64,000 bases of DNA, from the IMG/VR virus record IMGVR_UViG_3300032167_005013. One strand, written 5' to 3'. The position numbers and the translations under genes are program-made. Positions 2,751 through 58,483 of this stretch are shown in pieces. The stretch is from a virus (taxonomy: Duplodnaviria; Heunggongvirae; Uroviricota; Caudoviricetes). The notes under the pieces are model-generated. The model saw nothing but the letters and a program-made list of their open reading frames with translations, was not told where the DNA came from and did not search any database. Numbering within the stretch: position 1 is the stretch's first letter; each line of letters starts with the position of its first letter.

Positions 2751-3173
2751 TCATAAGTATAACACTTTTATTTCCAAATTATTCATGTTTTTTAAAAATC
2801 TATCACTTTCTTCAATCGCCAATTTTATTCGTTCAGTTTTTTCATTACATAATAGTAAAATATTATATTGTGTTTGTAAAATATTTTTACATTTCACTGT
2901 CAATTCTTTTACTTTTTGCTCATTAACAAATTCACTAAATACGGATAAAATTATATTTTCAGCAATTTCAATATCAGAGTCGCCATCCTCTTTAGCATAT
3001 TTTTTAACAATATTAATGCCATTCAAAATATATTCTTCACATTCTGATATAATGCTTTCGCATAAAGCAATATTGTCTACAATAAAACGGCCTTCAGAGT
3101 CTGCAATAATTCCATGTTTATTAAACATAAAGGCATGATATCCATGGCATTTCACATAATATTTTTTCTCCAT
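2751..3173 (-). CDS. hypothetical protein
   Basis: 140-aa ORF with the duplicated promoter and 5'UTR block upstream. Confidence 0.5.
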   Translation of the reverse strand: MEKKYYVKCHGYHAFMFNKHGIIADSEGRFIVDNIALCESIISECEEYILNGINIVKKYAKEDGDSDIEIAENIILSVFSEFVNEQKVKELTVKCKNILQTQYNILLLCNEKTERIKLAIEESDRFLKNMNNLEIKVLYL

Positions 3174-3236
3174 ATTAAATCTATTTTTTAAATTATCGAA
3201 AATATACTACAAATATCATGCCAAAAATTCTTAATA

Positions 3237-15570: not shown

Positions 15571-15610
15571 TATTGAACATTTACTTACTTATTATATACT
15601 TACACACGAA

Positions 15611-15649
15611 AAAACGGGACCTGTCGTGAGACACATCCCGTTTTATTTT
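15611..15649 (+). terminator. rho-independent terminator (aaaacgggacctgtcgtgagacacatcccgtttt + T-run); the same hairpin recurs at 31163-31194
   Basis: 9-bp stem, then ttttatttta. Confidence 0.6.
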
Positions 15650-16460
15650 AAAATCGTCTAATCTTATCCAAATATCCCTCAGATAATTCAATGATATTTG
15701 CTTTGTTAGCAAGAGATTTAATAAGAAGTTGATTATGAAGAACAACAATAATTTGCACTGTTTGTGATGCATCAACCAAAAAATCCCTCAATGCTGCAAG
15801 ATTATCCACATCAAGCCCCTCATCAGGTTCATCCATAATGAAAACCGCTTTCTTTGGGAGTGTATCATCATTAAAACCGTCAATAGCCTCTTTCGTTTTC
15901 TCAACAGCCTTTGTCCACATATCATTCATCGGTTTTTTAGGAAACAAAGAATCTTTGGTATATACCCCCATTTTTTCATTGGCCTCAATGATTGCCATTT
16001 TAAGCGTATTTATCATTCTCTGTCCTTTGCTCATTTTTCCTTCAGAAAAAAACTGTGCAAAATCACGGAAATTTTGAAAATTGTAACCGCCTCTCTTATT
16101 TTTCACACCCGTATCATCCATTCTATGAACAGGAGCATCATAATCATTGACAATTCTGAACATATCCTGCGGCTTATAAGCGGGGTCAAACCCTGATGAA
16201 TCAGGATAAAAAATCTTTACATCATCCCAAAACGTATATTCATTATTGAGGCCACCACGAGCAAGCGTCAACCTTGTTATTATATCAACCAATGTCGTCT
16301 TACCACAACCGTTTTCACCAATAACAAGATTCAACCCCGGTGTAAACTCAATCTTCTTAGGAAGAAGTTTTCTTTTTTTCTCATTTTCATCCTCACTAAG
16401 ATAATAATAGTCATTAACACTATTCTTTGCCTTATAGTTAATTTCAAGTGTTTTAATCAT
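15648..16460 (-). CDS. ABC/SMC-type P-loop ATPase
   Basis: Walker A GENGCGKTT, Walker B FIMDEPDEGLD, VVLHN; start moved to ATG 16458-16460. Confidence 0.55.
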   Translation of the reverse strand: MIKTLEINYKAKNSVNDYYYLSEDENEKKRKLLPKKIEFTPGLNLVIGENGCGKTTLVDIITRLTLARGGLNNEYTFWDDVKIFYPDSSGFDPAYKPQDMFRIVNDYDAPVHRMDDTGVKNKRGGYNFQNFRDFAQFFSEGKMSKGQRMINTLKMAIIEANEKMGVYTKDSLFPKKPMNDMWTKAVEKTKEAIDGFNDDTLPKKAVFIMDEPDEGLDVDNLAALRDFLVDASQTVQIIVVLHNQLLIKSLANKANIIELSEGYLDKIRRF

Positions 16461-29355: not shown

Positions 29356-29409
29356 AAAGTTTTTATTTAAAAGTTTTCTTATCTTACTGCAAATACCGTG
29401 CCAAAGTAA

Positions 29410-29613: not shown

Positions 29614-29830
29614 GGTTATTCCATTGCAGTCAACTACACCCACCTAAAGGAGGGTGCTTGACACTGCCTCGTTAGAGGCATGTCGATTGGGAGGTTGACT
29701 GCTCCCTGCCTGTAAGGATAACCAATTGACCTTCAATTGGTAAAAAACTCGATACAGGGTGGTTGGACCTTTGTCCGATATTAATCGCAGCATTCCAATC
29801 TGAGTCAAAGACAACTCCGTCAACGCAGAT
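29600..29830 (-). ncRNA. candidate omega RNA (right-end RNA) overlapping the tnpB 3' end and extending past the IS right end
   Basis: GC-rich structured segment 29641-29720 (hairpin gacatgcctc-taac-gaggcagtgtc) in an otherwise AT-rich genome; position matches known TnpB omega RNAs; not verified. Confidence 0.3.
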
Positions 29831-30995
29831 ATATCTGCGACCACGGCGCTCTCCATCACGATTATTGGTGCGACAATCCATCTGACTTGTATACATCGGA
29901 GAAACTGTTTCCACCTGCTTGCCCGCAAGTGGTGCCTTGTAAGTCAATATACGTTTAAATTCATAAAATGGAATCTGAGATAAAGCATTGTTATGCTTCG
30001 CTCTCTTGTACCCCTCACTGGTACGTGAAGTTTTCTTTTTAATCTTTGTGAGGTCTTCCATCACAATGATGGAAGCATTTGTACTATTAATGAGTACTTT
30101 ACTTGCACGATAACACATGTCCTTAGAGAGGTTGCGTTCCTTGTTGCGAACTTTCTTAAGGTGGCGCTTTGCTGATTTGGTACCTTTCTCTTGTAGTTTA
30201 CGCTTAAGATAACGGATGTCCCTACGCTTCTTAAGATATGTTGTATCTTTAAATGCCTTACCCTCTGAGGTAACAAATATCATTCTTGCACCGAGGTCAA
30301 CACCTATGCACTCCTCAGAATGTAATGGTTTTTCAGGTACTTCGAAGGGTACTGAAAGGAAGAAATTCCCGTTTCTATAGAATATTGTAGGGTCATATGC
30401 CTTATAAGTACTAAGCATTTCTTTTGCCTTAGGATAGACATTAAAAGGTACGAAAGTACGTTTGTTTTTCTGTGCCCCAGTAATGGTTATTCCTTCAGAT
30501 GTAAGCACTCCGTAGAGGCGTTTATCGAGGGTCATTGTTAATGATTTTCTCTGTGGTACTTCAGCGTTCTTATGTTTGTTTGCTTTAATTGATTTCAAAG
30601 CAGACGCTGCTGCTTGTTCGCACTTGATTACCATCTGTGAAGATAAAGCAGGAAACTCTGTCCTAATTACGTTATAACACGCCTCGTGTACTTTTTTAAG
30701 TGACAGTGTTATTTTGTTATCATGTAGAATACGTGTACACCTATTGTACGCATCTCTTGCACATACAAGAAGATTGTACCAATGCGTTGCATTGGTATCA
30801 TCCATTATTAGAGGTATGTTATAGGTTTGTACAATCATAGCATTCACGTATGTGATTTCTATATATAAATATTATAATAAATTAAAAAGTTTTATTTTTT
30901 TTTAAAAGTTATATATTTACATTAAGAAAATAATGTTTAACCAAAAAGGGTTTAATCGTAGTTCCTCTCCACCCTAAAGGATGGAGTTTCCCTAC
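29620..30995 (-). mobile_element. IS200/IS605-family element carrying only tnpB (IS1341-like), about 1.35 kb
   Basis: TnpB ORF; related subterminal hairpins at the left end (ctccaccctaaaggatggag, 30968-30987) and right end (cacctaaaggagggtg, 29641-29656); 10-bp inverted repeats 29625-29635 / 29693-29702 bracket the right end; boundaries approximate. Confidence 0.5.
29672..30838 (-). CDS. tnpB: TnpB (OrfB), an RNA-guided nuclease of the IS200/IS605 family
   Basis: RuvC-I GVDLGARMIF; C-terminal zinc-ribbon / RuvC-III region RYICVDGVVFDSDWNAAINIGQR (compare the canonical HADxNAAxNI); N-terminal YNIPL...YN; GTG at 30847 or ATG at 30838. Confidence 0.7.
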   Translation of the reverse strand: MIVQTYNIPLIMDDTNATHWYNLLVCARDAYNRCTRILHDNKITLSLKKVHEACYNVIRTEFPALSSQMVIKCEQAAASALKSIKANKHKNAEVPQRKSLTMTLDKRLYGVLTSEGITITGAQKNKRTFVPFNVYPKAKEMLSTYKAYDPTIFYRNGNFFLSVPFEVPEKPLHSEECIGVDLGARMIFVTSEGKAFKDTTYLKKRRDIRYLKRKLQEKGTKSAKRHLKKVRNKERNLSKDMCYRASKVLINSTNASIIVMEDLTKIKKKTSRTSEGYKRAKHNNALSQIPFYEFKRILTYKAPLAGKQVETVSPMYTSQMDCRTNNRDGERRGRRYICVDGVVFDSDWNAAINIGQRSNHPVSSFLPIEGQLVILTGREQSTSQSTCL

Positions 30996-31100
30996 GATAA
31001 ATTTATATGAAAAAATAAGGAATTAACCAAAGTCTCAAACCGATTAATTTCAAATGTGTTTTAGTACGTTCTGTCATAAAATCATAATTTAACATTCTCA

Positions 31101-31135
31101 GGGCAAATATACAAAAACCATGCCAAACCTAAAAA
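31101..31135 (-). promoter_or_regulatory. orphan sigma-A-type promoter (TTTGGCATGG...GTATATTTGC) now about 250 nt upstream of tnpB, separated from any phage gene by the IS
   Basis: same motif family as the promoters at 811, 3206 and 29376. Confidence 0.4.
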
Positions 31136-31159: not shown

Positions 31160-31197
31160 AAAAAACGGGACCTGTCGTGAGACACATCCCGTTTACT
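31160..31197. repeat. second copy of the 36-nt hairpin element aaaaaacgggacctgtcgtgagacacatcccgttt (first copy at 15608-15646)
   Basis: exact repeat; this copy has no downstream T-run on either strand. Confidence 0.7.
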
Positions 31198-31213
31198 TCT
31201 ATTATATCAACAT

Positions 31214-32773
31214 TTAGTCGTGAAGAATCTGTTTACCCGTTGCTTCAACCTCAACATGTCCACCCTTAAGCGAAACATTTCTATCGGTCTTAGCATTAAT
31301 TGTGTGGGACTCAAGAATCTTAGAAAGGTCCACGCCTGTCGCATTGGAAACCGTATCAAATGTCTGTTTGATGACCATTGGGACATTTGCTGATACGCCT
31401 GAGACACCATTATTATCACCGCCACCATAAATGGTAACATTATCAATTGACTTGATTGGTTCAGCAACGTTCTTGGCCATGTCAGGAAGAATACCAACAA
31501 GCATTTCAACAATTGCAGCATCATTATACTTCTGATAAGCGTCGGCTTTCTTGTTCATTGCTTCAGCCTCAGCCTCACCCTTCTTAAGAATTGCATAAGC
31601 CTCAGCTTCACCCTTAGCCTTGATACCGAGAGCCTCCTGTTCCATCTTAAACTTAAGTGCCTCAGCCTCCGCTCTCATAGCCTTTGCCCTCTGCTCAGCC
31701 TCATATGTCTCTGCTTCAGCCTTTCTCTTGCGCTGTTCAAGTTCTGCTGCAGCCGCAACTTCCTTATGATACTTATCAGCATCAGCCTTCTTATTTACTT
31801 CCGCCTCAAGAGTCTTCTGCATGATGGCAATTTCCTGAGCCTTCAATTCCTGTGTCTTGGCAGCCTTTTCAACCTCCGCCTCAACCTGCTTTGCATTGAT
31901 TTCCTTGCGTCTTTCAGCCTCAATAAGAGCCTCGGCAGCATGTGCCTCAACGGTCTTCACCTTAATGGTCTTTGCCTGTTCCTGCTTCTGAATTTCATAT
32001 GCAGCATCAGCCTCAGCACGTTTGATGTCTTCCGAAATCTTAAGTTCTGACTTCTTGATTGCAAGCTCATTGTTTTTCTCAGCAATCTTCGTCTCCGACG
32101 CAACACGTGCATCATTTGATTCCTGAAGAGCCTGAGCCTCTGCTACCTTCACATCCTTTGTGGCCTGTGCCTTATTAATGGCAGCCTCCTTAGTAATCTT
32201 GCATGTATTATCAGCACCGAGAGCCTCAATAAGCCCCTCACGGTCAGTTACTGACTGAATATTACATGAAAGAATTTCAATACCCAGGCGTTCCATATCA
32301 ACAGCAGCCTTCTTCTGAATCTGATTAGAGAAACCATCACGGTCTGTGTTAAGGGCGCGTAAGTCGAGTGTTCCAACAATCTCACGCATATTACCCTGAA
32401 GAACATCCTTCACCTGATGAGATATCATCTCAGGAGACATATTAAGAAAGTTCGCACTTGCAAGCCTAATCCCATCTTCAGTTGGCATAATTCTAACCTT
32501 TGCCACAGCATCCACATCTACATTGATGAAGTCTGAGGTTGGGACAGGGGTTGTTGTCTTTACATCAACTGTAATCTGTCCGGTATAAACCTTATCAAGT
32601 TTCTGAAAGAACGGAATCCTAAATCCACCTGAACCAATAAGAATTTTAGGCTTTTTAGTAAGTCCTGATATAATATAAGCAATCTGTGGCGATGTCTTAA
32701 CATAAGACGCAAAAATAAAAAGGACAAGGAATGCCACAATTCCAATGACCACATAAGTAAGTGTACTTGACAT
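31214..32773 (-). CDS. flotillin-like SPFH/band-7 membrane protein
   Basis: N-terminal transmembrane helix, SPFH-like region, then a long Ala/Glu/Lys-rich coiled coil typical of FloT/YuaG flotillins; 519 aa. Confidence 0.6.
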   Translation of the reverse strand: MSSTLTYVVIGIVAFLVLFIFASYVKTSPQIAYIISGLTKKPKILIGSGGFRIPFFQKLDKVYTGQITVDVKTTTPVPTSDFINVDVDAVAKVRIMPTEDGIRLASANFLNMSPEMISHQVKDVLQGNMREIVGTLDLRALNTDRDGFSNQIQKKAAVDMERLGIEILSCNIQSVTDREGLIEALGADNTCKITKEAAINKAQATKDVKVAEAQALQESNDARVASETKIAEKNNELAIKKSELKISEDIKRAEADAAYEIQKQEQAKTIKVKTVEAHAAEALIEAERRKEINAKQVEAEVEKAAKTQELKAQEIAIMQKTLEAEVNKKADADKYHKEVAAAAELEQRKRKAEAETYEAEQRAKAMRAEAEALKFKMEQEALGIKAKGEAEAYAILKKGEAEAEAMNKKADAYQKYNDAAIVEMLVGILPDMAKNVAEPIKSIDNVTIYGGGDNNGVSGVSANVPMVIKQTFDTVSNATGVDLSKILESHTINAKTDRNVSLKGGHVEVEATGKQILHD

Positions 32774-32792: not shown

Positions 32793-33173
32793 TTATTTCC
32801 TATTTTTCTTTTCATTCCTAAGTTCAACAACAGTCATAACTGCGTAATTAGCAAGGTCAAGAAGAGTATCTTCAACGGATTCGTCCTTTACCTGAATCTG
32901 TCCTTTCTCATAAATGTTTTCAAGACGTTCCATCTTATCCGACAGCCTTAACAAGGCTGTAAGAAAACCCCATTTCTTAAATCTCTTATGGAAATTATTT
33001 CCATAATCGGCATTCTTTTTAGCATGAACAACGTCCATTTCATGCAGAACATCATTAAAGTAATCAACATATTCATCAGAAGCAGTTTCTTCTACAGGCA
33101 ATTCAACGTAATCACTTCCATAATCTTTTGCAAGATTATCACCACTAAGTGTAAAACAATCGTAATTCTCCAT
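32793..33173 (-). CDS. hypothetical protein, possibly an all-alpha NTP pyrophosphohydrolase (MazG/DUF1599-like)
   Basis: HAKKNADYG and EDTLLDLANYAVMTVVEL; start moved to ATG 33171-33173, which has a TATCTTTGC -7 box upstream. Confidence 0.3.
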   Translation of the reverse strand: MENYDCFTLSGDNLAKDYGSDYVELPVEETASDEYVDYFNDVLHEMDVVHAKKNADYGNNFHKRFKKWGFLTALLRLSDKMERLENIYEKGQIQVKDESVEDTLLDLANYAVMTVVELRNEKKNRK

Positions 33174-33362
33174 TTCTTTTTTTTTTCGCAAAGATAGAAA
33201 CTTTTTAGTAGAAAACAAAAAAACTCCAACGTTTCTTGCGCAGGGAACCGTTGGAGAGAAAAATGATATAGTGTGGTTAGAAACCGATGTGGCGGTTATT
33301 TGACGATAAATATCGTTCAAAATAAAAAAATCGCACTATTTATTATAAAAATTGAATTTATC

Positions 33363-34289: not shown

Positions 34290-34979
34290 CTACTTCTTTC
34301 TGATTACTGAATCAATAAGGCCAAATTCAACAGCCTCATCCGCAGTATACCACCTATCCAACTTACAAAGTTCTGCAATTTCGTCAATAGGCCTGTTTGT
34401 ATTTTCCGCAAGAATCTGATAAAGAGTATTCTTACACTTCTCCATCTGTTCATACTCAACACGAAGGTCCTCAGCTTTAATCCTTCCAATCCCGGTTGAT
34501 GGCTGATGAATCATAACCTCTGAATGTGGGAGTGAATATCTTTTTCCTGACGCCCCCGAAGACAAAAGAACTGCAGCCATTGATGCACATGTTCCCATGC
34601 AATAAGTTGAAACATCAGGTGTTACAAAATTCATGATATCATATAACATCAAGCCACTTGCGACACTTCCCCCAGGGGAATTAATATATAGTTTAATATC
34701 TTCGGTTTCATCCACAGAGTTAAGGAACATCAACTGTGAAGCAAGGATATTAGCACTATCAGAAGTAACCTCAGTTCCAAGGAAAAGAATACGGTCCTTA
34801 AACAGACGGCTAAATACAGACATCTGCGTTACATTCATCTCACGTTCCTCAAGAATGTATGGCTCCACGTATCCACCATTGGTTCTCTGAAGATACTTAT
34901 CATATTCATTCAACTTATTACTACCAATACCATACTCTGAACGAGCAAAAAGTTCATAATCTTTTCTAAATTTATCCAT
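34290..34979 (-). CDS. clpP: ClpP-family serine peptidase (S14)
   Basis: TCASMAAVLL (Ser), VMIHQPS (His), EAVEFGLIDSV (Asp region); ATG start. Confidence 0.7.
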   Translation of the reverse strand: MDKFRKDYELFARSEYGIGSNKLNEYDKYLQRTNGGYVEPYILEEREMNVTQMSVFSRLFKDRILFLGTEVTSDSANILASQLMFLNSVDETEDIKLYINSPGGSVASGLMLYDIMNFVTPDVSTYCMGTCASMAAVLLSSGASGKRYSLPHSEVMIHQPSTGIGRIKAEDLRVEYEQMEKCKNTLYQILAENTNRPIDEIAELCKLDRWYTADEAVEFGLIDSVIRKK

Positions 34980-35827: not shown

Positions 35828-35849
35828 GTTGCAAATATACAAATATTAT

Positions 35850-36851
35850 TCAAATCAGCAAATCAATTTCATCAAATTTTTTCGCAGATTTAATTGTTTC
35901 AATAATTCCTTTTTTCCCCAAAGCCTCATATACCTCACCGAAATCTTTATATTCATTGAGTTCAATATACTTTATTCTACCTCGTAATCTCCCCACATTA
36001 AGAAGATTATATATTCTCTTCGTTTCTTCTATAGTGGTATCCGAATCAAGACATATTATAATATCAGCATTGGCTTTGGAATACAGTTTTTTATATAATT
36101 CACTATCTTTCAACAAAAATTTACCGAGCATTGAAATAGCATTATTATAATAGATACAATCAAGAGCACCTTCAACCAGAACTATATCGGCATCGAAATT
36201 AATTAAACTTTCTTGGAAGACTATTTCTTTTTTATCAGCATCGCAATTCTTGTATTTCGTTTTCTTTTCGTATCCGGAAAAATCTCGCGACACCCAATAA
36301 TTAAGGAACCCATATTCATCATAAGACGGAATTACAATCCTGTTTCTCATTGTCCATGTCTCACCATCCCATTGTGTATAGCCTATATTGAAACGGTCAA
36401 CGATATCCTGCGTTATTTGGCGTTTTTCGAGGTAATTTTTAAGTTTTTTACTCTTAAGTGATGAAATATCTATCTTGGTATAAGTTTCTGGCAATTTAAG
36501 TGTTTTTCCATTCTTATCTGTATTGCCATATATCTCATCCATATACGACGACAAGTCGTACATTTTACTCTCTCTAATGGATTTTATTTCTTCCTCATAT
36601 ATCTTGAATTTTTCTTTACCACCATATCGTCGTATTAAATACGAAAGGTTCCCCTTCCCGTCACAAGCCCAACAATGATACTTGCCAATGGCAAATGAAA
36701 CCTCAAGATTATATTTCCCATCGGGCCCACCTTTTTCCTCAGCACAATCCATTATGCAATTGAACTGATACTGTGAACACCCTTTCATGTATCCACCCTG
36801 CTTTGATTCACCTAAAATTGAAACTAAAATATTATAAATCTTCTGAAACAT
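35850..36851 (-). CDS. DnaG-like DNA primase (zinc finger plus TOPRIM)
   Basis: CWACDGKGNLSYL zinc-binding motif; TOPRIM-like VLVEGALD ... IIICLDSD; start moved to the Met after the intergenic hairpin and -7 box. Confidence 0.55.
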   Translation of the reverse strand: MFQKIYNILVSILGESKQGGYMKGCSQYQFNCIMDCAEEKGGPDGKYNLEVSFAIGKYHCWACDGKGNLSYLIRRYGGKEKFKIYEEEIKSIRESKMYDLSSYMDEIYGNTDKNGKTLKLPETYTKIDISSLKSKKLKNYLEKRQITQDIVDRFNIGYTQWDGETWTMRNRIVIPSYDEYGFLNYWVSRDFSGYEKKTKYKNCDADKKEIVFQESLINFDADIVLVEGALDCIYYNNAISMLGKFLLKDSELYKKLYSKANADIIICLDSDTTIEETKRIYNLLNVGRLRGRIKYIELNEYKDFGEVYEALGKKGIIETIKSAKKFDEIDLLI

Positions 36852-37502: not shown

Positions 37503-39551
37503 TTAATTCAGAACCTCTGCATCGTCGCCGTCATAGTACATGAAACCATAAAGGCCTTCACTACCTTTGACAAGTTCGATGTGTCCTGCAGCGACTGTCT
37601 CATCAGTTGCTGTTTCAACCTTAACCGAAACCTTAGGGTTGTTAGGGTCAGCGTTGTTTACTTCAATAGCATTGTCTGCGGAAGTAACTGAATTCACACC
37701 ACCCGCAACAGCAGCGCGAATGCTATCCTGAATACCCTGAAGGACTGTTGAAATCTTGGTATCTCCTGAATAAATCGCATCACCTGTTGCGCCAGTAATA
37801 TCACTACCGAGAGCAATATCCTTAGCAGCAATTTCGAGTTCAGCAACCTTACCCTCAGAAACTACAGCATCAATACCATTAACCTTAACAGCCTCAATTA
37901 CGTTAACCTGAGCGCCCTCAGCAATGTTATTAAGTTTCTCCTCATAAGAAGCCTCAAATTCATTGAAACCGTCTTTGGTTACGAAAGTATCGTCGCCATA
38001 CTTCTTAGCATCAGCAAGAACCTGAGCGTCAGCAGCAGCCCACTTCTTATCAATCTCAACCTCACGCTCATCGGTATAAGCCTTAGCGTCAGCAAGAGCC
38101 TGAGCAGCTGCGCCTGCAACCTCGTAGTTTCCTGCAAGGCCATCAGCATATTCTTTAGCAGCCCTAAGAACCTCATTATCAAGTTCAGTTATCTTATCAA
38201 GGAATGCTTGTGAAACTGCAATACCATTAGTTGTTACCTGAAGATAAGTGTTTGCAGTCTCATCAACCTTTACCTTGAACGTTTTACCATCAAGAACAAG
38301 GCCATCACCCGCAGCATAGTAATCAAGAAGGTCTGTTACATCCATGCGGATATCTTCTTTACCTGCAGCAGTATTGAAGGTCAATACGAGATATTTCTCA
38401 CCGGCCTCACCTTCTTTAGGTCCATCAAGAACAGCACCTTCAAGCATACCATCCTTAATGAAAGCAGTTGCATCAATTGATGAAACAACCTCACCATTAA
38501 TTCCCTGGAGACGAAGCACTGCATTCTGTTCATCTGAAGCCGGAACATAAGCAAGAGTAAGAGTTGTTTTCAATTTATCTCCATCAAGGGAAATAACTTT
38601 TTCACCATCAGCAACTCCCTGAACCGGAGCAGTTGGAACAATAACATCAACTGATTTATCAGCCTCTGCTATCACAAGAGCCTGTCCGTTAACTTTAACG
38701 ACCTCAAGTTTGTTAACCTGAGCACCTGCCTCGATATTACCAAGTTTAGTACCCTCATCATTAGTCATAAGACGAGAACCCTCAACCTTATCGACTTTCT
38801 TACCAAGTTCACCCTCTATTTCAGATTTAAGAGCAGCATCAGCACCTATATAAGCATCATGGTCAATTGCTTCAAGAACCTTAACGCGCCCATCCATAGC
38901 CTCGTCCTTACCATCGGCATAGTCTTTAGCGTCAGTAAGAGCCTGAGCAGCCTGTTCATCAGCATAAGTCTTTGCTGCATCCTCAGCATCGGCAATTTCT
39001 TTGTAAAGTCCTGTAGCAGCATCCTCGCCTGCAGCCGCTTTTCCTATTTCAGATTCAATACCTGAAACCTTAGTCTTAAGTTCAGCAACGTCAGCGTCAA
39101 GATTACCACTTGCAGTAGAAGCTGCGAGTTTCTGAAGTTGTCCCTGACCGATTACAATATAAGGAGCAGCGTCATATTCAACAGCAGCACCTTCACCTTC
39201 TCCGTCAGCATCATACTCAGATTTAGTCTTAACATAGATAACCTGACCAATATTATCATCAGTTGCAAGAGCAACTGCATCCTTATATTCTTCAACAGCA
39301 AGTGAACCATTTCCTGAACCTACGGCAACCCAAGCGTCTTCTGAAGTCGAATTAGCCGCATCTTTAAGCATGTATACCTGTCCATCTTCAACAACAGCAA
39401 CAAGCATACCGTTATATTTCGCCAAACCAAATGTATCATCAGCAAGCAAGTCAGCAAATGACTGTACTACTGTTCTATCATCAAGTGGCTGTGCACCGGT
39501 AGGTTTAATTGCCGATGCGAAGTTTATCATACCATTAAATAATTTTGCCAT
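37503..39551 (-). CDS. tail fibre protein, Ala/Asp-rich coiled coil, with an N-terminal domain shared with 41646..42578 and a GSGNGSLAVEEYKDAV domain shared with 54739..56685
   Basis: repeats of ADAKAYTDE / LADAKKYGDD type; shared domains noted in the findings. Confidence 0.6.
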   Translation of the reverse strand: MAKLFNGMINFASAIKPTGAQPLDDRTVVQSFADLLADDTFGLAKYNGMLVAVVEDGQVYMLKDAANSTSEDAWVAVGSGNGSLAVEEYKDAVALATDDNIGQVIYVKTKSEYDADGEGEGAAVEYDAAPYIVIGQGQLQKLAASTASGNLDADVAELKTKVSGIESEIGKAAAGEDAATGLYKEIADAEDAAKTYADEQAAQALTDAKDYADGKDEAMDGRVKVLEAIDHDAYIGADAALKSEIEGELGKKVDKVEGSRLMTNDEGTKLGNIEAGAQVNKLEVVKVNGQALVIAEADKSVDVIVPTAPVQGVADGEKVISLDGDKLKTTLTLAYVPASDEQNAVLRLQGINGEVVSSIDATAFIKDGMLEGAVLDGPKEGEAGEKYLVLTFNTAAGKEDIRMDVTDLLDYYAAGDGLVLDGKTFKVKVDETANTYLQVTTNGIAVSQAFLDKITELDNEVLRAAKEYADGLAGNYEVAGAAAQALADAKAYTDEREVEIDKKWAAADAQVLADAKKYGDDTFVTKDGFNEFEASYEEKLNNIAEGAQVNVIEAVKVNGIDAVVSEGKVAELEIAAKDIALGSDITGATGDAIYSGDTKISTVLQGIQDSIRAAVAGGVNSVTSADNAIEVNNADPNNPKVSVKVETATDETVAAGHIELVKGSEGLYGFMYYDGDDAEVLN

Positions 39552-39580
39552 ATCCTAAAATCAATATTCTTCAATTATTA

Positions 39581-41527
39581 TTAAGCCACTGTGAATTTAA
39601 CACGGTTAGGTCCTTCAGTTGAAGCCCACTCATAAACTGTATAAGTCACCTCTTTACCCTGAATAGTTCTTGTAACAGTACCGTTTGCGACGAACTTATC
39701 TTTACAATCAATAGCATATTTCGCTGTAGTTGGATTGATTGCCATTGCAGTTGTTACCTTCCAAGCACCAGGGAGGAAAAGACGGTATGGTTCAAGGCCC
39801 TGATTAGCAAATGAAACCGCAAATGAAGTATTTGATTTCATAAGAGCCAATTTAGTACCATCACCTGTTACTGGAGCAGCGAGGTCTGCCATAGCCGCAC
39901 CAGTTGCATCTGTAGTAGAAGCACTAACGCCATTGGTATATACAGGATAAACACCTGTTACAGTGAATGTTGCAGACTGATTAGAAGGGTCTTTTTCAAC
40001 ACCTGCCTGAGCAGCAATTGCAACTGATTTCTTCTCCTCACTTCTTCCACCAAGGTTTGAAACGATATAATAAGAAGCAACTCCATCATGTGAACCTGTA
40101 TGCTTAGGCGCATCCTCAGTTACTACATACTTATTAGTTCCTTCAACAGCAACAAGAGTACATGAAGCAAGCTTACATAAAGAAGCGGTAGCGTCTTGAA
40201 CTGTTGTTGGGAGTGTTCCTGTGAAACCGGTAGAAGCCGCTGAAAGTTCATAAACGTTGTTATTCATCTGTGAAACTGTCCAAGCACCTGAAACTGAAGT
40301 TGCGTCTACAACATCATCACCATCAACAGTAGCAGAATAACCATGCTCAAATCCACTTACTTTAGGCTCAGTCTTAGAAATTGAAACTGCATTTGCTGTA
40401 ACCTCACTGAATGTAATTGCCTGTCCAACTTCTACAAGCCCATTATTGTTTCCACCTGTTGCACTAACAGTTGGTGCTGAAATTGAAACACTATAACTTG
40501 GAGTATTCTTTGAAGGTACCGGATAGATTTCAACACAAAGAAGAGCCTTAAGAACTGCCTGAAGGTCAGTACCTGCAGGGATGACACCATCAGCAAAAGC
40601 AGATTTAACTGCATCAGAAGCAAGAGGGCCACCCTCAATTGTAATAGATTCCTTAAGAACTGTCTTATCAACTGTCATATCGTCAACAACAAGTTCATTG
40701 GATTCGTTAACTGAAAGGAAGTTGTTAGCCTCAGCAACCTTAACATTGAAAGTCACACCATCCTCAGCGAGTTCGAGTGCGGTACCTGCATTGTAAAGTT
40801 TCGCAAAATCAGAAACCTTAATCTCATCAGTCTTAGTTGACTCACCCTCAGTCTTCCAAGTGAAAATGATATATTTCTCACCATCTTCTTTAGTTTCAAC
40901 TTTAACATCCTCAAGAACGCTGTCTTTCAGGAAATCAGTTGCATCAAATCCTGCAATTTCCTCGCCACCAATTCCCGTAAGAGAGATTTTATTGTTCTCA
41001 TATTTAAGACCAATTGTTGATGAAAGAATACCGTCAGCAACATTAAGAACTTTGTCGCCTTCAGCAACATTCTTCACCATAATTTCAGTAAGTGAATCTT
41101 GAAGGTCCTTAATATCACCTTCAACTTCGTCGAAACGAGCAGTAACCTTAGCGAAAGCAGCAGCAAGATTTGCAAAATCCTCATCCATTACAGTGATTTT
41201 GCCTTCACCATCAAGACTAACATTTACAATACCTACCACCTTAAGAAGGGCTGCAGCTACATCAGCGCTCTCGTCATCAAGAGTGGCAATTTTATCAGCA
41301 AGAGATTCAATCTGTCCTTCCTGATAACGAGCATAGTGCTTTGTACCGAAATAAATGTCATAAATGTCGTTTCTTAAATCATTGTCATCCTGTACGCCCT
41401 CAGTGTTGGCATCAGAATCAACAACTGTTCTAACGAACCAAATATAACCTTTTCTATCAGCTGCAGCAACCTCTGCGAAAGTCGTACCAAGTACGGACTT
41501 AATACCTTTAAAAAGTTGTTTTGACAT
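39581..41527 (-). CDS. tail fibre protein
   Basis: 648 aa, low-complexity beta-rich, adjacent to other fibre genes. Confidence 0.5.
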   Translation of the reverse strand: MSKQLFKGIKSVLGTTFAEVAAADRKGYIWFVRTVVDSDANTEGVQDDNDLRNDIYDIYFGTKHYARYQEGQIESLADKIATLDDESADVAAALLKVVGIVNVSLDGEGKITVMDEDFANLAAAFAKVTARFDEVEGDIKDLQDSLTEIMVKNVAEGDKVLNVADGILSSTIGLKYENNKISLTGIGGEEIAGFDATDFLKDSVLEDVKVETKEDGEKYIIFTWKTEGESTKTDEIKVSDFAKLYNAGTALELAEDGVTFNVKVAEANNFLSVNESNELVVDDMTVDKTVLKESITIEGGPLASDAVKSAFADGVIPAGTDLQAVLKALLCVEIYPVPSKNTPSYSVSISAPTVSATGGNNNGLVEVGQAITFSEVTANAVSISKTEPKVSGFEHGYSATVDGDDVVDATSVSGAWTVSQMNNNVYELSAASTGFTGTLPTTVQDATASLCKLASCTLVAVEGTNKYVVTEDAPKHTGSHDGVASYYIVSNLGGRSEEKKSVAIAAQAGVEKDPSNQSATFTVTGVYPVYTNGVSASTTDATGAAMADLAAPVTGDGTKLALMKSNTSFAVSFANQGLEPYRLFLPGAWKVTTAMAINPTTAKYAIDCKDKFVANGTVTRTIQGKEVTYTVYEWASTEGPNRVKFTVA

Positions 41528-54738: not shown

Positions 54739-56685
54739 TTAAAGTGCTATCATTTTAGTCCACTTAGCGAAATTGTGTTGAATTTCAAGCAAATAATTTG
54801 TATTAGTTTCCAAATCAGCAATCGGAATATTTGATAAAATTATATCTGCAGGAAGGGATATTGTTCCAAATGTATCACTTGTCTTGAACAGAACTGAATA
54901 ACGATAAGCAACCTCGCCCTCAGTTTCCTCATAAGTTAATGTTAAATTGGATACCGGTTCCTCAATAACATGCAATGTATTTGGTTTAATTGTAAGAGTA
55001 CCCTCCACCGGAACTGTTGTGTCTATAGCCCAATTCACCTGTGAATTAATATCATTAAGGGATGCTGTCATTGCAATAACAGTTGCCCCAAGAGTATTCT
55101 CAATTTTCCTCACAGCAGTATTGACGTTATCCCCCATTACAATTGAATCCATTGTATAAGATGCTTCTTCAAGAGTTTCATCAAGAACAATATCCTTGCC
55201 TTCAAGAACAACGCCATTTTCTTGGGAAATTGTATAACCATTTACGGTATATGCATCAATAGCCTCAGTCTTTTCATTGAAAGCTTTTCCCTGTTCCTCA
55301 ATTTTATCAGCAAGAACCTTAAGTTCATCCTGAGTACCGTCAGCAGATACTATATATGAAAGTTTTCCTTCACCTTCAACAAGATAAAATCCCTCAAGGT
55401 AAACAACCTCATTATACTCCGAATCCTTCTTGGTCTTAAAAATTTGTCCTACATTGTTTGCGGTGGCACGTTGAACTGCAGTGGCATAATTCTCAACTTC
55501 CTGAGGTTTTAAATTATTCATATTCAATTTCAACGAGGAAGTTTCGCCACTTATTGCCGAAATACTATCCGTATTACCTGATACTGTTTCTGAAAGACTT
55601 GCCAATTCCTCACTATATCCTGATACAACCATTGAAAGGTTCGCCAATTCTTCTGTATTACCTGATACTGTTTCTGAAAGACTTGCCAATTCTTCTGTGT
55701 GGCCACTAATTGTATCAGTAATTACCGATAAAATATTTTCAATCTCAGATATGCGTGTTTTAAACGTTTCAGCAATAACAAGACTACCATTTTCATCAAA
55801 TGCAAGAATAGTTTCATTTTCACCTAACCTAATTCCAATAATTTGGTTTTCTAAAGAAATGCCATCCCCCGAAGAGTATTGTTCAGTAAACATCTCTGAA
55901 ACGTCAACCATAATATCCTCTTTTTGGGCGGCTTCAGTAAATGTCAACACAAGGTATTTTACCCCATCAACCTCATCAATATAAACATTTTCAACTCTTC
56001 CATCAGCAACGCCTTCAATGTTATCAACAGAAACAGTAAATGCAACAGTCTTATCAGTAACCGGAAGTTCCTCACCATTTACAATGATTTTTTCAATAAC
56101 GTTAGCCTGAGCATTGGTTTCAATGCCCTGAAGTTTTGTGATATCTGAATCTGAAACAAGTGAGTAACCACTTTTAATATCAACTTTTTTATCAAGTTCA
56201 GAATTTAATTCCCCAACGCTTATTTTCAACCCTGCAATCTCAGTATCCACATCAGCATCACCGGAAGCAAGTGACATTGAAAGTTTCATGAGTTCACCTT
56301 CACCTATAACAATATAAGGCCCTGTGTAATATGTTTGATTGTCATATACACTATCGTTCTTAACGAATATAATTTGTCCAAGATTTTCGGCAGATGCTTC
56401 AATAACTGCGTCTTTATATTCCTCTACTGCAAGTGAACCGTTTCCGGATATTTTTACAACATCCCCCAATGTATTTTTAATGTATATGCTTGGGTCATTC
56501 GCATTATTGTTAATAACAAGAATACCTTTATTGAGTTCCAATTGTTCTGTTTTAAGAACATCATATAGAGGATGGTCAGGCTGAACGTCTATGAAAAATT
56601 TTGCAAGTTCATTATTAATTTCAGTCTGAGTTGTTCCCGTAACACGGTTTACATGGCCGTGCACAATGTTTCTATTATTTGCCAT
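54739..56685 (-). CDS. tail fibre protein with two copies of the GSLAVEEYKDAV-type domain and in-frame 28-aa tandem repeats
   Basis: shares a domain with 37503..39551; internal repeats VSGNTEELANLS... appear three times. Confidence 0.6.
   Translation of the reverse strand: MANNRNIVHGHVNRVTGTTQTEINNELAKFFIDVQPDHPLYDVLKTEQLELNKGILVINNNANDPSIYIKNTLGDVVKISGNGSLAVEEYKDAVIEASAENLGQIIFVKNDSVYDNQTYYTGPYIVIGEGELMKLSMSLASGDADVDTEIAGLKISVGELNSELDKKVDIKSGYSLVSDSDITKLQGIETNAQANVIEKIIVNGEELPVTDKTVAFTVSVDNIEGVADGRVENVYIDEVDGVKYLVLTFTEAAQKEDIMVDVSEMFTEQYSSGDGISLENQIIGIRLGENETILAFDENGSLVIAETFKTRISEIENILSVITDTISGHTEELASLSETVSGNTEELANLSMVVSGYSEELASLSETVSGNTDSISAISGETSSLKLNMNNLKPQEVENYATAVQRATANNVGQIFKTKKDSEYNEVVYLEGFYLVEGEGKLSYIVSADGTQDELKVLADKIEEQGKAFNEKTEAIDAYTVNGYTISQENGVVLEGKDIVLDETLEEASYTMDSIVMGDNVNTAVRKIENTLGATVIAMTASLNDINSQVNWAIDTTVPVEGTLTIKPNTLHVIEEPVSNLTLTYEETEGEVAYRYSVLFKTSDTFGTISLPADIILSNIPIADLETNTNYLLEIQHNFAKWTKMIAL
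55528..55720 (-). repeat. about three 84-nt in-frame tandem repeats inside the fibre gene (an exact 38-nt core at 55571-55608 and 55655-55692)
   Basis: seen in sequence. Confidence 0.7.
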
Positions 56686-56737
56686 TGATTATAACCTTTT
56701 TAATTATCTATAAATAGTTAAAATACATGTAAAAAAC

Positions 56738-56761
56738 AATGGGGGACCATTGGTCCCCCAT
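56738..56761 (-). terminator. terminator (atgggggaccattggtcccccat), with a T-run on the minus strand
   Basis: perfect 10-bp stem. Confidence 0.55.
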
Positions 56762-56788
56762 ATATTTTAACATAAACTATTAGGCCTA

Positions 56789-58483
56789 TTAATATTCGCC
56801 ACAGTCAATTGTCATGTTAGAAAAATCAATCGCTACTGCAGTACCTGTCTTAACGGCACTTACACCTGTAAGATTAGATACTGTAACACTCTGAACGGCT
56901 GTATCTGCGGTTGATTTAACACCTACAAGAGCATCAGCCGATGCAATATCATTTTCAGCAACATTTACAGCTGTAACCTTACCATCTTGCTCAATAACCT
57001 CAACAGCAACGTGCTTACCACTTGCAACAGTAGCAGTACCTGCTGTAGCATCAAGTGCTCCTATTGCGTCGCTAATCTGAGTTGCAACTGGAGTCTCGCC
57101 TACGAGCCCCTGAAGACCTGTAATTGCTGTTGCATTATTATCAGCCTTTGTCTGAGCAGCGGTTATTGCAGCCTGAATTGAACCCTGTGTAGTATATCCT
57201 GATGTTACTTTCTTAAGATTGTCGATATCACTAACCATCTGCGCTGATGAAGTTTCATCACTGGAAATCCAAGCAGCGATTTCTTGCAATGTATCAAAAT
57301 CTTCTGGTGCCTCAGCAATAACCTTCGCAACCTCTGCAGCGGCAATTTCACGAGCAGACATATCTTCATCGTCACCTACGAGTGTATTAACTTTTGTCTG
57401 AAGGGCTGAAAGGTCATCTGAAGTAGCGAACTCACTCATATCCTCAGTTACTGTAACACCTGTGATAACGCCATCAAGCTGGTCAACTTTAACTGTTACA
57501 TGAGCACTTGAACCTGTTTCAGATGCATCAAGTCCCCCTATTGCGTTGCTAATCTGAGTTGCAACTGCAGTGTCGCCTACAAGTTCCTCAAGAGCATCAA
57601 TTGCATCCGCATTGTCATCGGCTTTCTTATCAACAGCGCTAATTTGGCCATTAAGGGCTGTTGTAGTTGCAGTTATTGCAGAATCAACATAAGTTTTAGC
57701 ACTCGCAATTGCGTTACTCTCAGCATTATCCCATGCGTTAACCTTTGCTGATGTAATACCATCAATAACACCCTTATTATCATGGGTATGTGCAGATGAT
57801 TCAAGTGCTTCAATCTTTGTGCCGTGTCCTGCAATATTAGCAGTATTTGCACTAATTGCTGCAGTATTTGCACTAATTGCGGCAGTATTATCAGCAACGT
57901 CCTTTACGAGACCATCAGTACTGTCACCCACAAGTGCTTCGAGGTCAGATACACGACTTGTAAGGGTTTCGCCAGAACCTGCACCAACACCTACAGCAGC
58001 CTGAAGTTCTGCGATATCAGCCTCATTGTCCCCAACGCGAGTTCCGAGAGCGGTTAAATCAGCACCCTTAGCGAACTCACTCATATCCTCAGTTACTGTA
58101 ACACCTGTGATTTTACCACCAGCCTGGTCAACCTTAACTGTCACATGAGTACTGTTTCCTGAAGTACTTCCACTAAGAGCGGCAATATCAGCCTTTGTTG
58201 CTGCGCTGCTATCTCTGAAAGTTTCGAGAGCAGTAACTTTACCCTCTGCAGCACTTAAACGAGTATCAATTCCATTTACGTTATTTGAAATTGCACTTGT
58301 TAAACCCGTTACCTTATCAAGTGAAGGTATGTATACAAGAGCATCACCTGCGCTTGTCAATACAGCCAACTCAGTATCAGCCTTTGTTGCAGCATTACGT
58401 ACCGCAATCTCACCAAGATTAAGTTTTGTAGCATCGGCGAGTCGAGTCGTACCGTGTAAATGTATTAATGTTTGTCTTGCCAT
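56789..58483 (-). CDS. tail fibre protein with a 215-aa internal duplication and a 7-aa tandem repeat (AISANTA)
   Basis: exact 41-nt repeat at 57425-57466 and 58071-58111; N-terminus similar to the 18218..18568 product. Confidence 0.55.
   Translation of the reverse strand: MARQTLIHLHGTTRLADATKLNLGEIAVRNAATKADTELAVLTSAGDALVYIPSLDKVTGLTSAISNNVNGIDTRLSAAEGKVTALETFRDSSAATKADIAALSGSTSGNSTHVTVKVDQAGGKITGVTVTEDMSEFAKGADLTALGTRVGDNEADIAELQAAVGVGAGSGETLTSRVSDLEALVGDSTDGLVKDVADNTAAISANTAAISANTANIAGHGTKIEALESSAHTHDNKGVIDGITSAKVNAWDNAESNAIASAKTYVDSAITATTTALNGQISAVDKKADDNADAIDALEELVGDTAVATQISNAIGGLDASETGSSAHVTVKVDQLDGVITGVTVTEDMSEFATSDDLSALQTKVNTLVGDDEDMSAREIAAAEVAKVIAEAPEDFDTLQEIAAWISSDETSSAQMVSDIDNLKKVTSGYTTQGSIQAAITAAQTKADNNATAITGLQGLVGETPVATQISDAIGALDATAGTATVASGKHVAVEVIEQDGKVTAVNVAENDIASADALVGVKSTADTAVQSVTVSNLTGVSAVKTGTAVAIDFSNMTIDCGEY
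57840..57895 (-). repeat. 21-nt tandem repeat (gcagtatttgcactaattgcY, about 2.6 copies)
   Basis: seen in sequence; encodes AISANTAAISANTA. Confidence 0.7.

Follow-up and report, generated by a model that had tools for sequence, protein, structure and literature searches.

What bacterial flotillins do is still under debate. In Bacillus subtilis, floT (encoding FloT/YuaG) lies in an operon with the NfeD gene yuaF, and eukaryotic flotillins attach to membranes via acylation and a hairpin. Flotillin-1 and flotillin-2 (reggie) form a cage (9BQ2, 9L3G), and the HflK/HflC, QmcA, stomatin, prohibitin, and erlin cages likewise combine an SPFH fold with a coiled-coil wall. Here, we describe a complete flotillin gene in a 64,000-nucleotide stretch of viral DNA (the window; IMG/VR record IMGVR_UViG_3300032167_005013), which we conclude comes from a very divergent uncultured gut or rumen jumbo phage of Bacteroidota. 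SPFH/Band 7 proteins have been listed in phages since at least 2006, in the T4-like phages 44RR, Aeh1, and RB43 (PMC1524935), and they are also present in the Pseudomonas KPP10 and PAK_P3 phage groups (PMC8540360). Like these, the window protein is a phage-encoded membrane protein of the SPFH superfamily; however, those of the cultured phages are reported as SPFH/Band 7 domain matches only, whereas here the flotillin is complete and ~60% identical to host flotillins.

Few deposited phages carry anything similar, with the window flotillin being matched in just 9 of 50,697 phage records, mostly unannotated metagenomic ones. Vibrio phage KIT04 has a 473-aa protein annotated as 'flotillin family protein', which matches Band_7 but not Flot and is 24% identical to the window protein over 212 residues. 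A full-text literature search found no discussion of flotillin in jumbo or gut phages, and the word flotillin does not occur in the jumbo-phage surveys and reviews that we searched; phage Perkons was rejected as a precedent, as the paper describes integration into the host floA gene and not a phage flotillin. The family and its annotation in phages are thus already known, and the new element is its apparent repeated capture by large Bacteroidota phages.

The flotillin gene is an intact open reading frame (ORF) with an ATG start, and its parts are as follows.

31214 to 32773, minus strand: flotillin coding sequence, 519 aa plus a TAA stop at 31214-31216 (ORF list, Pfam, and profile match).
32699 to 32764, minus strand: N-terminal membrane anchor, residues 4-25 (LTYVVIGIVAFLVLFIFASYVK), the sole hydrophobic segment and a helix in the AlphaFold2 model.
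32159 to 32680, minus strand: SPFH / Band_7 domain, residues 32-205 (Pfam PF01145, fold model, and 1WIN superposition).
31607 to 32158, minus strand: Ala/Glu/Lys-rich coiled-coil region, residues 206-389 (composition, modeled helices, and flotillin-1 alignment).
31346 to 31606, minus strand: Flot C-terminal domain with EA repeats (GEAEAYAILKKGEAEAEAM), residues 390-476 (Pfam PF15975 and flotillin-1 alignment).

Both Pfam domains that define a flotillin score above their curated cutoffs, with Band_7 (PF01145) matching residues 32-205 (E 2.8e-22, 80.1 bits against a cutoff of 23.6) and Flot (PF15975) matching residues 390-476 (E 1.7e-7, 31.8 bits against 27), which rules out a generic coiled-coil structural protein lacking SPFH. 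The hydrophobic segment at residues 4-25 has a Kyte-Doolittle 19-residue mean of 2.66, with none elsewhere in the protein, and it is followed by the Lys-rich TKKPK; the bulk of the protein is therefore predicted to be cytoplasmic by the positive-inside rule. Residues 206-430 (~225 residues) are 22% Ala, 17% Glu, and 15% Lys. A family profile built from 85 relatives matches human flotillin-1 (9L3G, 9BQ2) with E 3.7e-70 in three collinear stretches corresponding to the SPFH domain, coiled coil, and C-terminal domain, and it spans the same three regions of flotillin-2 (E 2.4e-60); matches to Escherichia coli QmcA (E 1.2e-8) and archaeal stomatin (E 8.8e-6) are far weaker. Residues 206-389 align with the helices of the flotillin-1 coiled-coil wall, and the Flot C-terminal region with flotillin-1 residues 277-423 (E 8e-26). 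The product is, very probably, a phage-borne flotillin. The preliminary description of the locus, written from the letters alone, had proposed exactly this ORF on these coordinates, with an N-terminal transmembrane helix, an SPFH-like region, and an Ala/Glu/Lys-rich coiled coil, and had called it a flotillin (SPFH/band-7) homologue unless profile searches assigned it to a coiled-coil protein without SPFH; the searches bear this out, with matches that lie well outside what chance would give.

The predicted structure is of the same kind. The AlphaFold2 monomer has a helix at residues 2-23, an alpha/beta SPFH fold with predicted local distance difference test (pLDDT) scores of 67-85, two long helices at 181-273 and 294-427, and a poorly defined C-terminus. 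Flotillin-1/2 cage chains take the top Foldseek ranks (E 2.5e-22, 28-29% identity, ~460 columns), with HflK/C, stomatin, prohibitin, QmcA, and erlin ranking lower (E 1e-12 to 1e-8). The SPFH domain alone superposes on that of flotillin-2 (1WIN) with a root mean square deviation of 2.3 Å over 125 columns; the global deviation of the elongated monomer (~90 Å) is meaningless, as the long helices are placed differently. The phage protein therefore shares with the flotillin-1/flotillin-2 cage proteins the SPFH domain, coiled coil, C-terminal homology, and EA-rich oligomerization motif, although it has a true N-terminal hydrophobic helix, unlike the eukaryotic proteins. The HflK/HflC, QmcA, stomatin, prohibitin, and erlin proteins are far less similar and lack the Flot C-terminal domain, and the phage gene has no linkage to FtsH or NfeD. 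It has the same domain order as B. subtilis FloT/YuaG, a bacterial flotillin, but its score against the NCBIfam FloT model NF058507 (E 7.9e-81, 272.5 bits) falls below the equivalog cutoff of 700, which places it in the flotillin family but not among the FloT equivalogs. In PHROGs, only a weak match to a 'lipoprotein' family was found.

The setting of the gene looks like that of a phage, as had been supposed. The window has ~1.2 genes per kb and 35% GC, with long same-strand gene runs and dense small ORFs, compared with 0.6-1.0 genes per kb and 44-59% GC at bacterial flotillin loci; no tRNAs were found in it. Replication and repair genes include PolB, a primase, and an SbcC-like nuclease (SbcCD), and the primase, PolB, a metallophosphatase, and ClpP (34290-34979) are the flotillin's neighbors, as first described. 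Among 59 further window ORFs, 26 PHROG families are matched, and these ORFs encode an exonuclease, a RuvC-like resolvase, and DNA methyltransferases, along with two sigma-70 factors, T5orf172, a PHROG 'tail protein', and a GH108 endolysin that carries a peptidoglycan-binding domain. An identical flotillin appears in 39 blocks of a public assembly collection, 10 of which have contigs of 0.2-1 Mb, and flotillins 79-82% identical sit on a 366-kb scaffold and others that are phage-like, with dozens of unknown small ORFs. In three relatives (loci L001, L002, and L005) the flotillin lies amid genes for NAD synthase, NAPRTase, HSP70, HSP20, YqeY, a collagen-like protein, and NAD-dependent epimerases, a gene content that fits the gastrointestinal NAD-jumbo phages (PMC11662467). 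There is no cultured relative as a guide: a megablast search with 7 kb around the flotillin found no match among the 50,697 deposited phage genomes, and the window PolB is at most 23-26% identical to deposited phage polymerases (Salinibacter phage).

Capsid, portal, and terminase genes were not identified within the 64-kb window, many of its ORFs are matchless, and IMG/VR labels are by themselves no proof, with one set of IMG/VR flotillins at ~54% identity perhaps being proviral. Such observations would suit bacterial DNA, some other large mobile element, or a chimeric assembly, with the flotillin being an ordinary cellular gene, and the phage assignment rests on the other hallmark genes, the relatives, and the contig properties. 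However, the same gene order around the identical flotillin recurs across independent samples and assemblers (ENA, JGI), the PHROG matches include the endolysin, tail protein, phage sigma factors, and T5orf172, and gene density and GC both differ from bacterial loci. Moreover, no cellular housekeeping gene was found in ~74 kb (the window plus an extension of 10 kb past its start, which holds only small ORFs without a Pfam match), the composition of the gene at third codon positions is shifted toward that of the element (see below), and no flotillin more than 64% identical was found when one genome per GTDB species was scanned. We therefore consider a cellular origin of this DNA very improbable. 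A 1644-aa protein with BspA-type leucine-rich repeats lies at the window edge, and a look-up with it, aimed at extending toward the structural genes, returned no record.

Searches with the flotillin protein returned a tight group of 31 at 72-95% identity, followed by hundreds at ~58-66%. The best GTDB matches (up to 64%) are in metagenome-assembled genomes (MAGs) of rumen Paludibacteraceae, Prevotella, and other Bacteroidales; among isolates, identity is 58% for the flotillins of Segatella buccae ATCC 33574 and Hoylesella pleuritidis, and Firmicutes flotillins are at ~54%. In a neighbor-joining tree of 211 flotillins (100 bootstraps), the clade that contains the window protein has 32 members (bootstrap 100), or 35 with the L112-type sister group (bootstrap 98), and all five contexts checked in its clade are phage-like. 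These data support descent of the window flotillin from a bacterial, Bacteroidales-type flotillin, in line with the host acquisition that the preliminary description had proposed to check by phylogeny. Its remark that flotillins are normally host genes should be qualified, given that SPFH proteins have been annotated in phages for many years (PMC1524935) and that flotillins recur on many large phage contigs. The chromosomal flotillins of Bacteroidales (Segatella buccae ATCC 33574, and MAGs of rumen Prevotella and Paludibacteraceae) are of similar length (~490-530 aa), have the same four-part architecture, are 58-64% identical, and are likewise stand-alone genes without an adjacent NfeD. The phage gene differs from them in lying in a low-GC genome, in its lower third-position GC, and in forming a separate clade (bootstrap 98-100), and its product has ten fixed differences and a different C-terminal tail.

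Flotillins appear to have been captured or exchanged repeatedly by several large phage lineages. Within the 60-65% identity class, the P0065 flotillin shares its contigs (248-413 kb) with gp32, TnpB, and unknown ORFs, and that of P0038 lies on 385-kb contigs of 31% GC with a KilA-N/ANT gene; both contexts are phage-like, as is that of P0035, whereas P0108 is on an ordinary Bacteroidales chromosome, beside the genes for TamB, shikimate dehydrogenase, and dihydrolipoyl dehydrogenase. The phage-context clades interleave with Bacteroidales clades in the tree, which points to repeated capture: P0038 and L020 form a clade (bootstrap 100) that is sister to a Prevotella clade (bootstrap 94), the clades of L008 and of L015-L025 are each supported at bootstrap 100 and that of P0065 at 94, and L010 to L014 are singletons. 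There are at least three checked phage-context clades besides that of the window, with further ones from IMG/VR. Phage-context loci have a GC content of 0.27-0.51 and more than one gene per kb, compared with 0.40-0.59 and mostly lower gene density at the GTDB loci, and the two sets have zero flanking genes in common (spurious ORFs overlapping the flotillin were excluded from the grouping of flanking genes). The flanks of 11 IMG/VR flotillin loci contain NAPRTase, NAD synthase, gp32, Thg1, dUTPase, PNKP, PolB, ligase, and chaperonin genes. A second IMG/VR scan yielded 40 flotillin loci.

A different group of flotillins was seen in one IMG/VR sample (3300045988), where ~16 'viral' contigs of 94-181 kb (L126-L141, L150) encode flotillins 51-54% identical to the query. 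This ~54% subset resembles the flotillins of Lachnospiraceae/Clostridia (Firmicutes), and its members may be proviral calls on bacterial contigs.

The gene has adapted to its phage genomes and is under purifying selection. Across 31 phage-context loci, the GC content at third codon positions (GC3) of the flotillin correlates with that of the flanking genes (r = 0.92); in the window it is 0.39 for the flotillin and 0.28 for the flanks, and bacterial flotillins have a mean of 0.68. Pairwise Nei-Gojobori ratios of nonsynonymous to synonymous divergence (dN/dS) within the phage clade are approximately 0.09-0.19, with 0.08-0.18 in the SPFH domain and 0.06-0.10 in the coiled coil; the membrane anchor has the highest ratios, and the lowest are those of the SPFH, coiled-coil, and Flot regions. 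The flotillin has long resided in phage genomes and is neither newly acquired nor chimeric. An alignment of 73 bacterial flotillins has 207 columns with at least 95% conservation, and the window protein keeps 191 of them; the 16 changes are mostly conservative, and at ten positions the phage clade and the bacteria have different fixed residues. A non-functional passenger, or a generic coiled-coil structural protein, would have only the low-complexity look of the coiled coil in its favor; we find either hardly credible, as more than 30 divergent relatives retain an intact ORF at these dN/dS values, the SPFH and Flot domains pass their cutoffs, and the gene has its own promoter and terminator. 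The elements of this transcription unit are as follows.

32793 to 33173, minus strand: DUF1599 gene, 126 aa from the ATG at 33173 (Pfam PF07659, E 3.5e-10; gene call in relative L003).
33189 to 33219, minus strand: Bacteroidota-type promoter, TTTG-N19-TATCTTTG (pattern search), 15 nt upstream of the DUF1599 ATG.
31160 to 31201, minus strand: intrinsic terminator with a 13-bp interrupted stem and a U-run (RNA fold), 13 nt after the flotillin stop.

The DUF1599 stop is separated from the flotillin ATG by 19 nt, and the two genes are probably co-transcribed as a two-gene unit; the adjacency is kept in L005-L007, where the flotillin is 79% identical, but not in L001 and L002. The -33/-7 promoter consensus is well established in Bacteroides, and the pattern TTTG-N18-21-TAnnTTTG occurs at nine sites in the window (8533-39458) where 3.2 are expected, all nine on the coding (minus) strand and eight just upstream of gene starts, including those of PolB, the primase, and the metallophosphatase. 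This excess and its placement point to a Bacteroidota host, with host-type RNA polymerase holoenzyme probably transcribing the flotillin unit, and the sequence pattern suggests that flotillin shares its regulation with the replication genes and not with the late ones. The terminator hairpin is strong (-23.5 kcal/mol, z -5.8, with 0 of 200 shuffles equally stable), and a copy 93% identical (family D11) lies 15.5 kb away at 15609-15650, each copy being directly downstream of a minus-strand gene; this pair corresponds to the repeated 36-nt hairpin noted at the outset beside the flotillin. A 40-nt hairpin between flotillin and TnpB was rejected as the repeated element, being single-copy in the window. 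An Rfam scan of 27-34 kb gave nothing meaningful.

From these features, we predict the topology, assembly, expression timing, and physiological role of the protein. Flotillin would be transcribed together with DUF1599 from a host-type promoter, of the kind that also precedes the replication genes, with transcription ending at the strong terminator. The N-terminal helix would hold the protein in the cytoplasmic membrane of the host, with the SPFH domain facing the cytoplasm, and the coiled coil and EA-rich C-terminal domain would drive oligomerization into an SPFH cage enclosing a patch of membrane, resembling the solved flotillin-1/2 cage (9BQ2, 9L3G) and other SPFH protein cages. We propose that phage flotillin replaces or boosts the host flotillin scaffold, and that membrane microdomains, fluidity, and integrity would thereby be sustained through a long jumbo-phage infection once host gene expression fails; other phage-carried genes for host maintenance offer the analogy. 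We lean modestly toward this role, relative to its rivals, and the near-complete retention of host-conserved positions favors the host's job over a decoy or a new function.

The same similarity to the host proteins could serve interference, with the phage flotillin co-assembling with or displacing the host flotillin (~60% identical) and re-targeting its microdomains; this could result in superinfection exclusion, in blunting of membrane-acting abortive infection, or in delayed lysis. The identity of 58-64% to Bacteroidales flotillins extends across the oligomerization regions, and the flotillin-1/flotillin-2 structures (9BQ2, 9L3G) offer a precedent for co-assembly; these two eukaryotic proteins are less alike than the phage and host pair and still co-assemble. 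A host-type promoter in common with the replication genes suggests expression before lysis, and the ten positions fixed differently in the phage clade would also be accommodated. However, the conserved positions are almost all kept, and there is no truncation or loss such as a dominant-negative protein might have. The flotillin and three neighbors matched none of the PADLOC defense-model families, and no holin or spanin gene is linked to flotillin. Interference is therefore a tentative and, in our judgment, unlikely explanation.

Another role would be that of a scaffold for a specific membrane machine in the style of HflK/C-FtsH, such as a protease, a platform for secretion or assembly, or a membrane-attached site of replication or virion assembly. 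FtsH-enclosing HflK/C cages (7VHQ, 9CZ2, 7WI3) are among the structural matches and ClpP lies ~1.5 kb upstream of flotillin in the window, but flotillins outrank HflK/C widely (E 2.5e-22 versus 1.9e-12 in the fold search, and the PDB sequence profile agrees), and ClpP is soluble and not near flotillin in L001, L002, or L005. We reject a functional link between ClpP and flotillin, as the adjacency is specific to the window phage and not kept in relatives. The immediate neighbors of flotillin in the window are DUF1599 and TnpB, and in a search for partners across phage lineages NAPRTase was alone among flanking families in being common to at least three lineages. There is no NfeD partner in any annotated context, with no NfeD Pfam match among called genes within 8-10 kb on either side in L001-L007, L026-L029, and L110-L112; this sets the phage flotillins apart from FloT and from the SPFH-NfeD operon pairs generally (QmcA-YbbJ, YuaF-FloT). 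One other phage lineage, with contigs up to 415 kb, has genes for a LemA-family membrane protein and a 246-aa protein directly upstream of flotillin and on the same strand (L022, 8589-11566), which may be a small membrane-protein cluster and would suit a machine; L018 (3287-6245) has the same gene sizes and order, its LemA being putative. Overall, we regard a dedicated machine scaffold as doubtful.

Several observations weigh against replacement of the host scaffold by a captured flotillin, in addition to the capsid, portal, and terminase genes not found in the window. The confidence of the AlphaFold2 monomer is only moderate (pLDDT 64.7 overall, below 50 at the C-terminus), and dS within the phage clade (0.9-2.0) is near saturation, which makes the dN/dS values approximate. 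Deep nodes of the tree are weak (bootstrap 13-37) and do not show which lineage was the donor or exactly how many captures there were; we therefore claim repeated capture or exchange and not a donor or a count. Apart from NAPRTase, no partner gene is kept across phage lineages, so no client process is pointed to.

If the replacement role is correct, membrane organization joins NAD+ salvage, HSP70, ClpP, and chaperonin in the host-maintenance repertoire of these phage contexts. The phage protein itself is a conventional flotillin, yet a virus bears the cost of carrying it and maintains it by strong purifying selection, and this carriage, together with the seemingly independent acquisitions, argues that a flotillin-organized membrane is limiting in long, large-genome infections; organizing the host membrane probably matters to these phages. 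They also offer a natural gain-of-function system for the role of flotillin in Gram-negative anaerobes. We also speculate, as an improbable variant, that captured SPFH cages build a phage-specific membrane structure, such as an early-infection or replication compartment or an assembly platform, which would parallel the use of flotillin/raft domains by eukaryotic viruses rather than being mere housekeeping replacement.

Just downstream of the flotillin terminator there is a TnpB-like gene (29672-30847, minus strand, 391 aa, Cas12f1-like_TNB and OrfB_IS605), preceded by the 40-nt perfect-stem hairpin (30957-30996, minus strand; CGTAGGGAAACTCCATCCTTTAGGGTGGAGAGGAACTACG), which may be an IS605-type end. 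The element is not found after flotillin in the 79% identical relatives L005-L007 and looks like a recent insertion, and TnpB genes recur on other flotillin-bearing phage contigs (L005, L026). Repeated intergenic motif families are present on the minus strand, such as TTTGGCATGATATTTGTATATTTG, at 810-837, 2195-2238, 2612-2655, 3171-3225, 29362-29405, 31102-31129, and 35830-35857; they resemble a phage-specific class of promoters, which one of the two phage sigma factors could recognize. Large paralogous pairs at 37503-41527 (682 and 648 aa) and 54739-58483 (648 and 564 aa), all on the minus strand, have internal repeats and no Pfam or PHROG match. These repeat-bearing paralogues, which the 1644-aa BspA-type leucine-rich repeat protein adjoins, could be structural or surface proteins.

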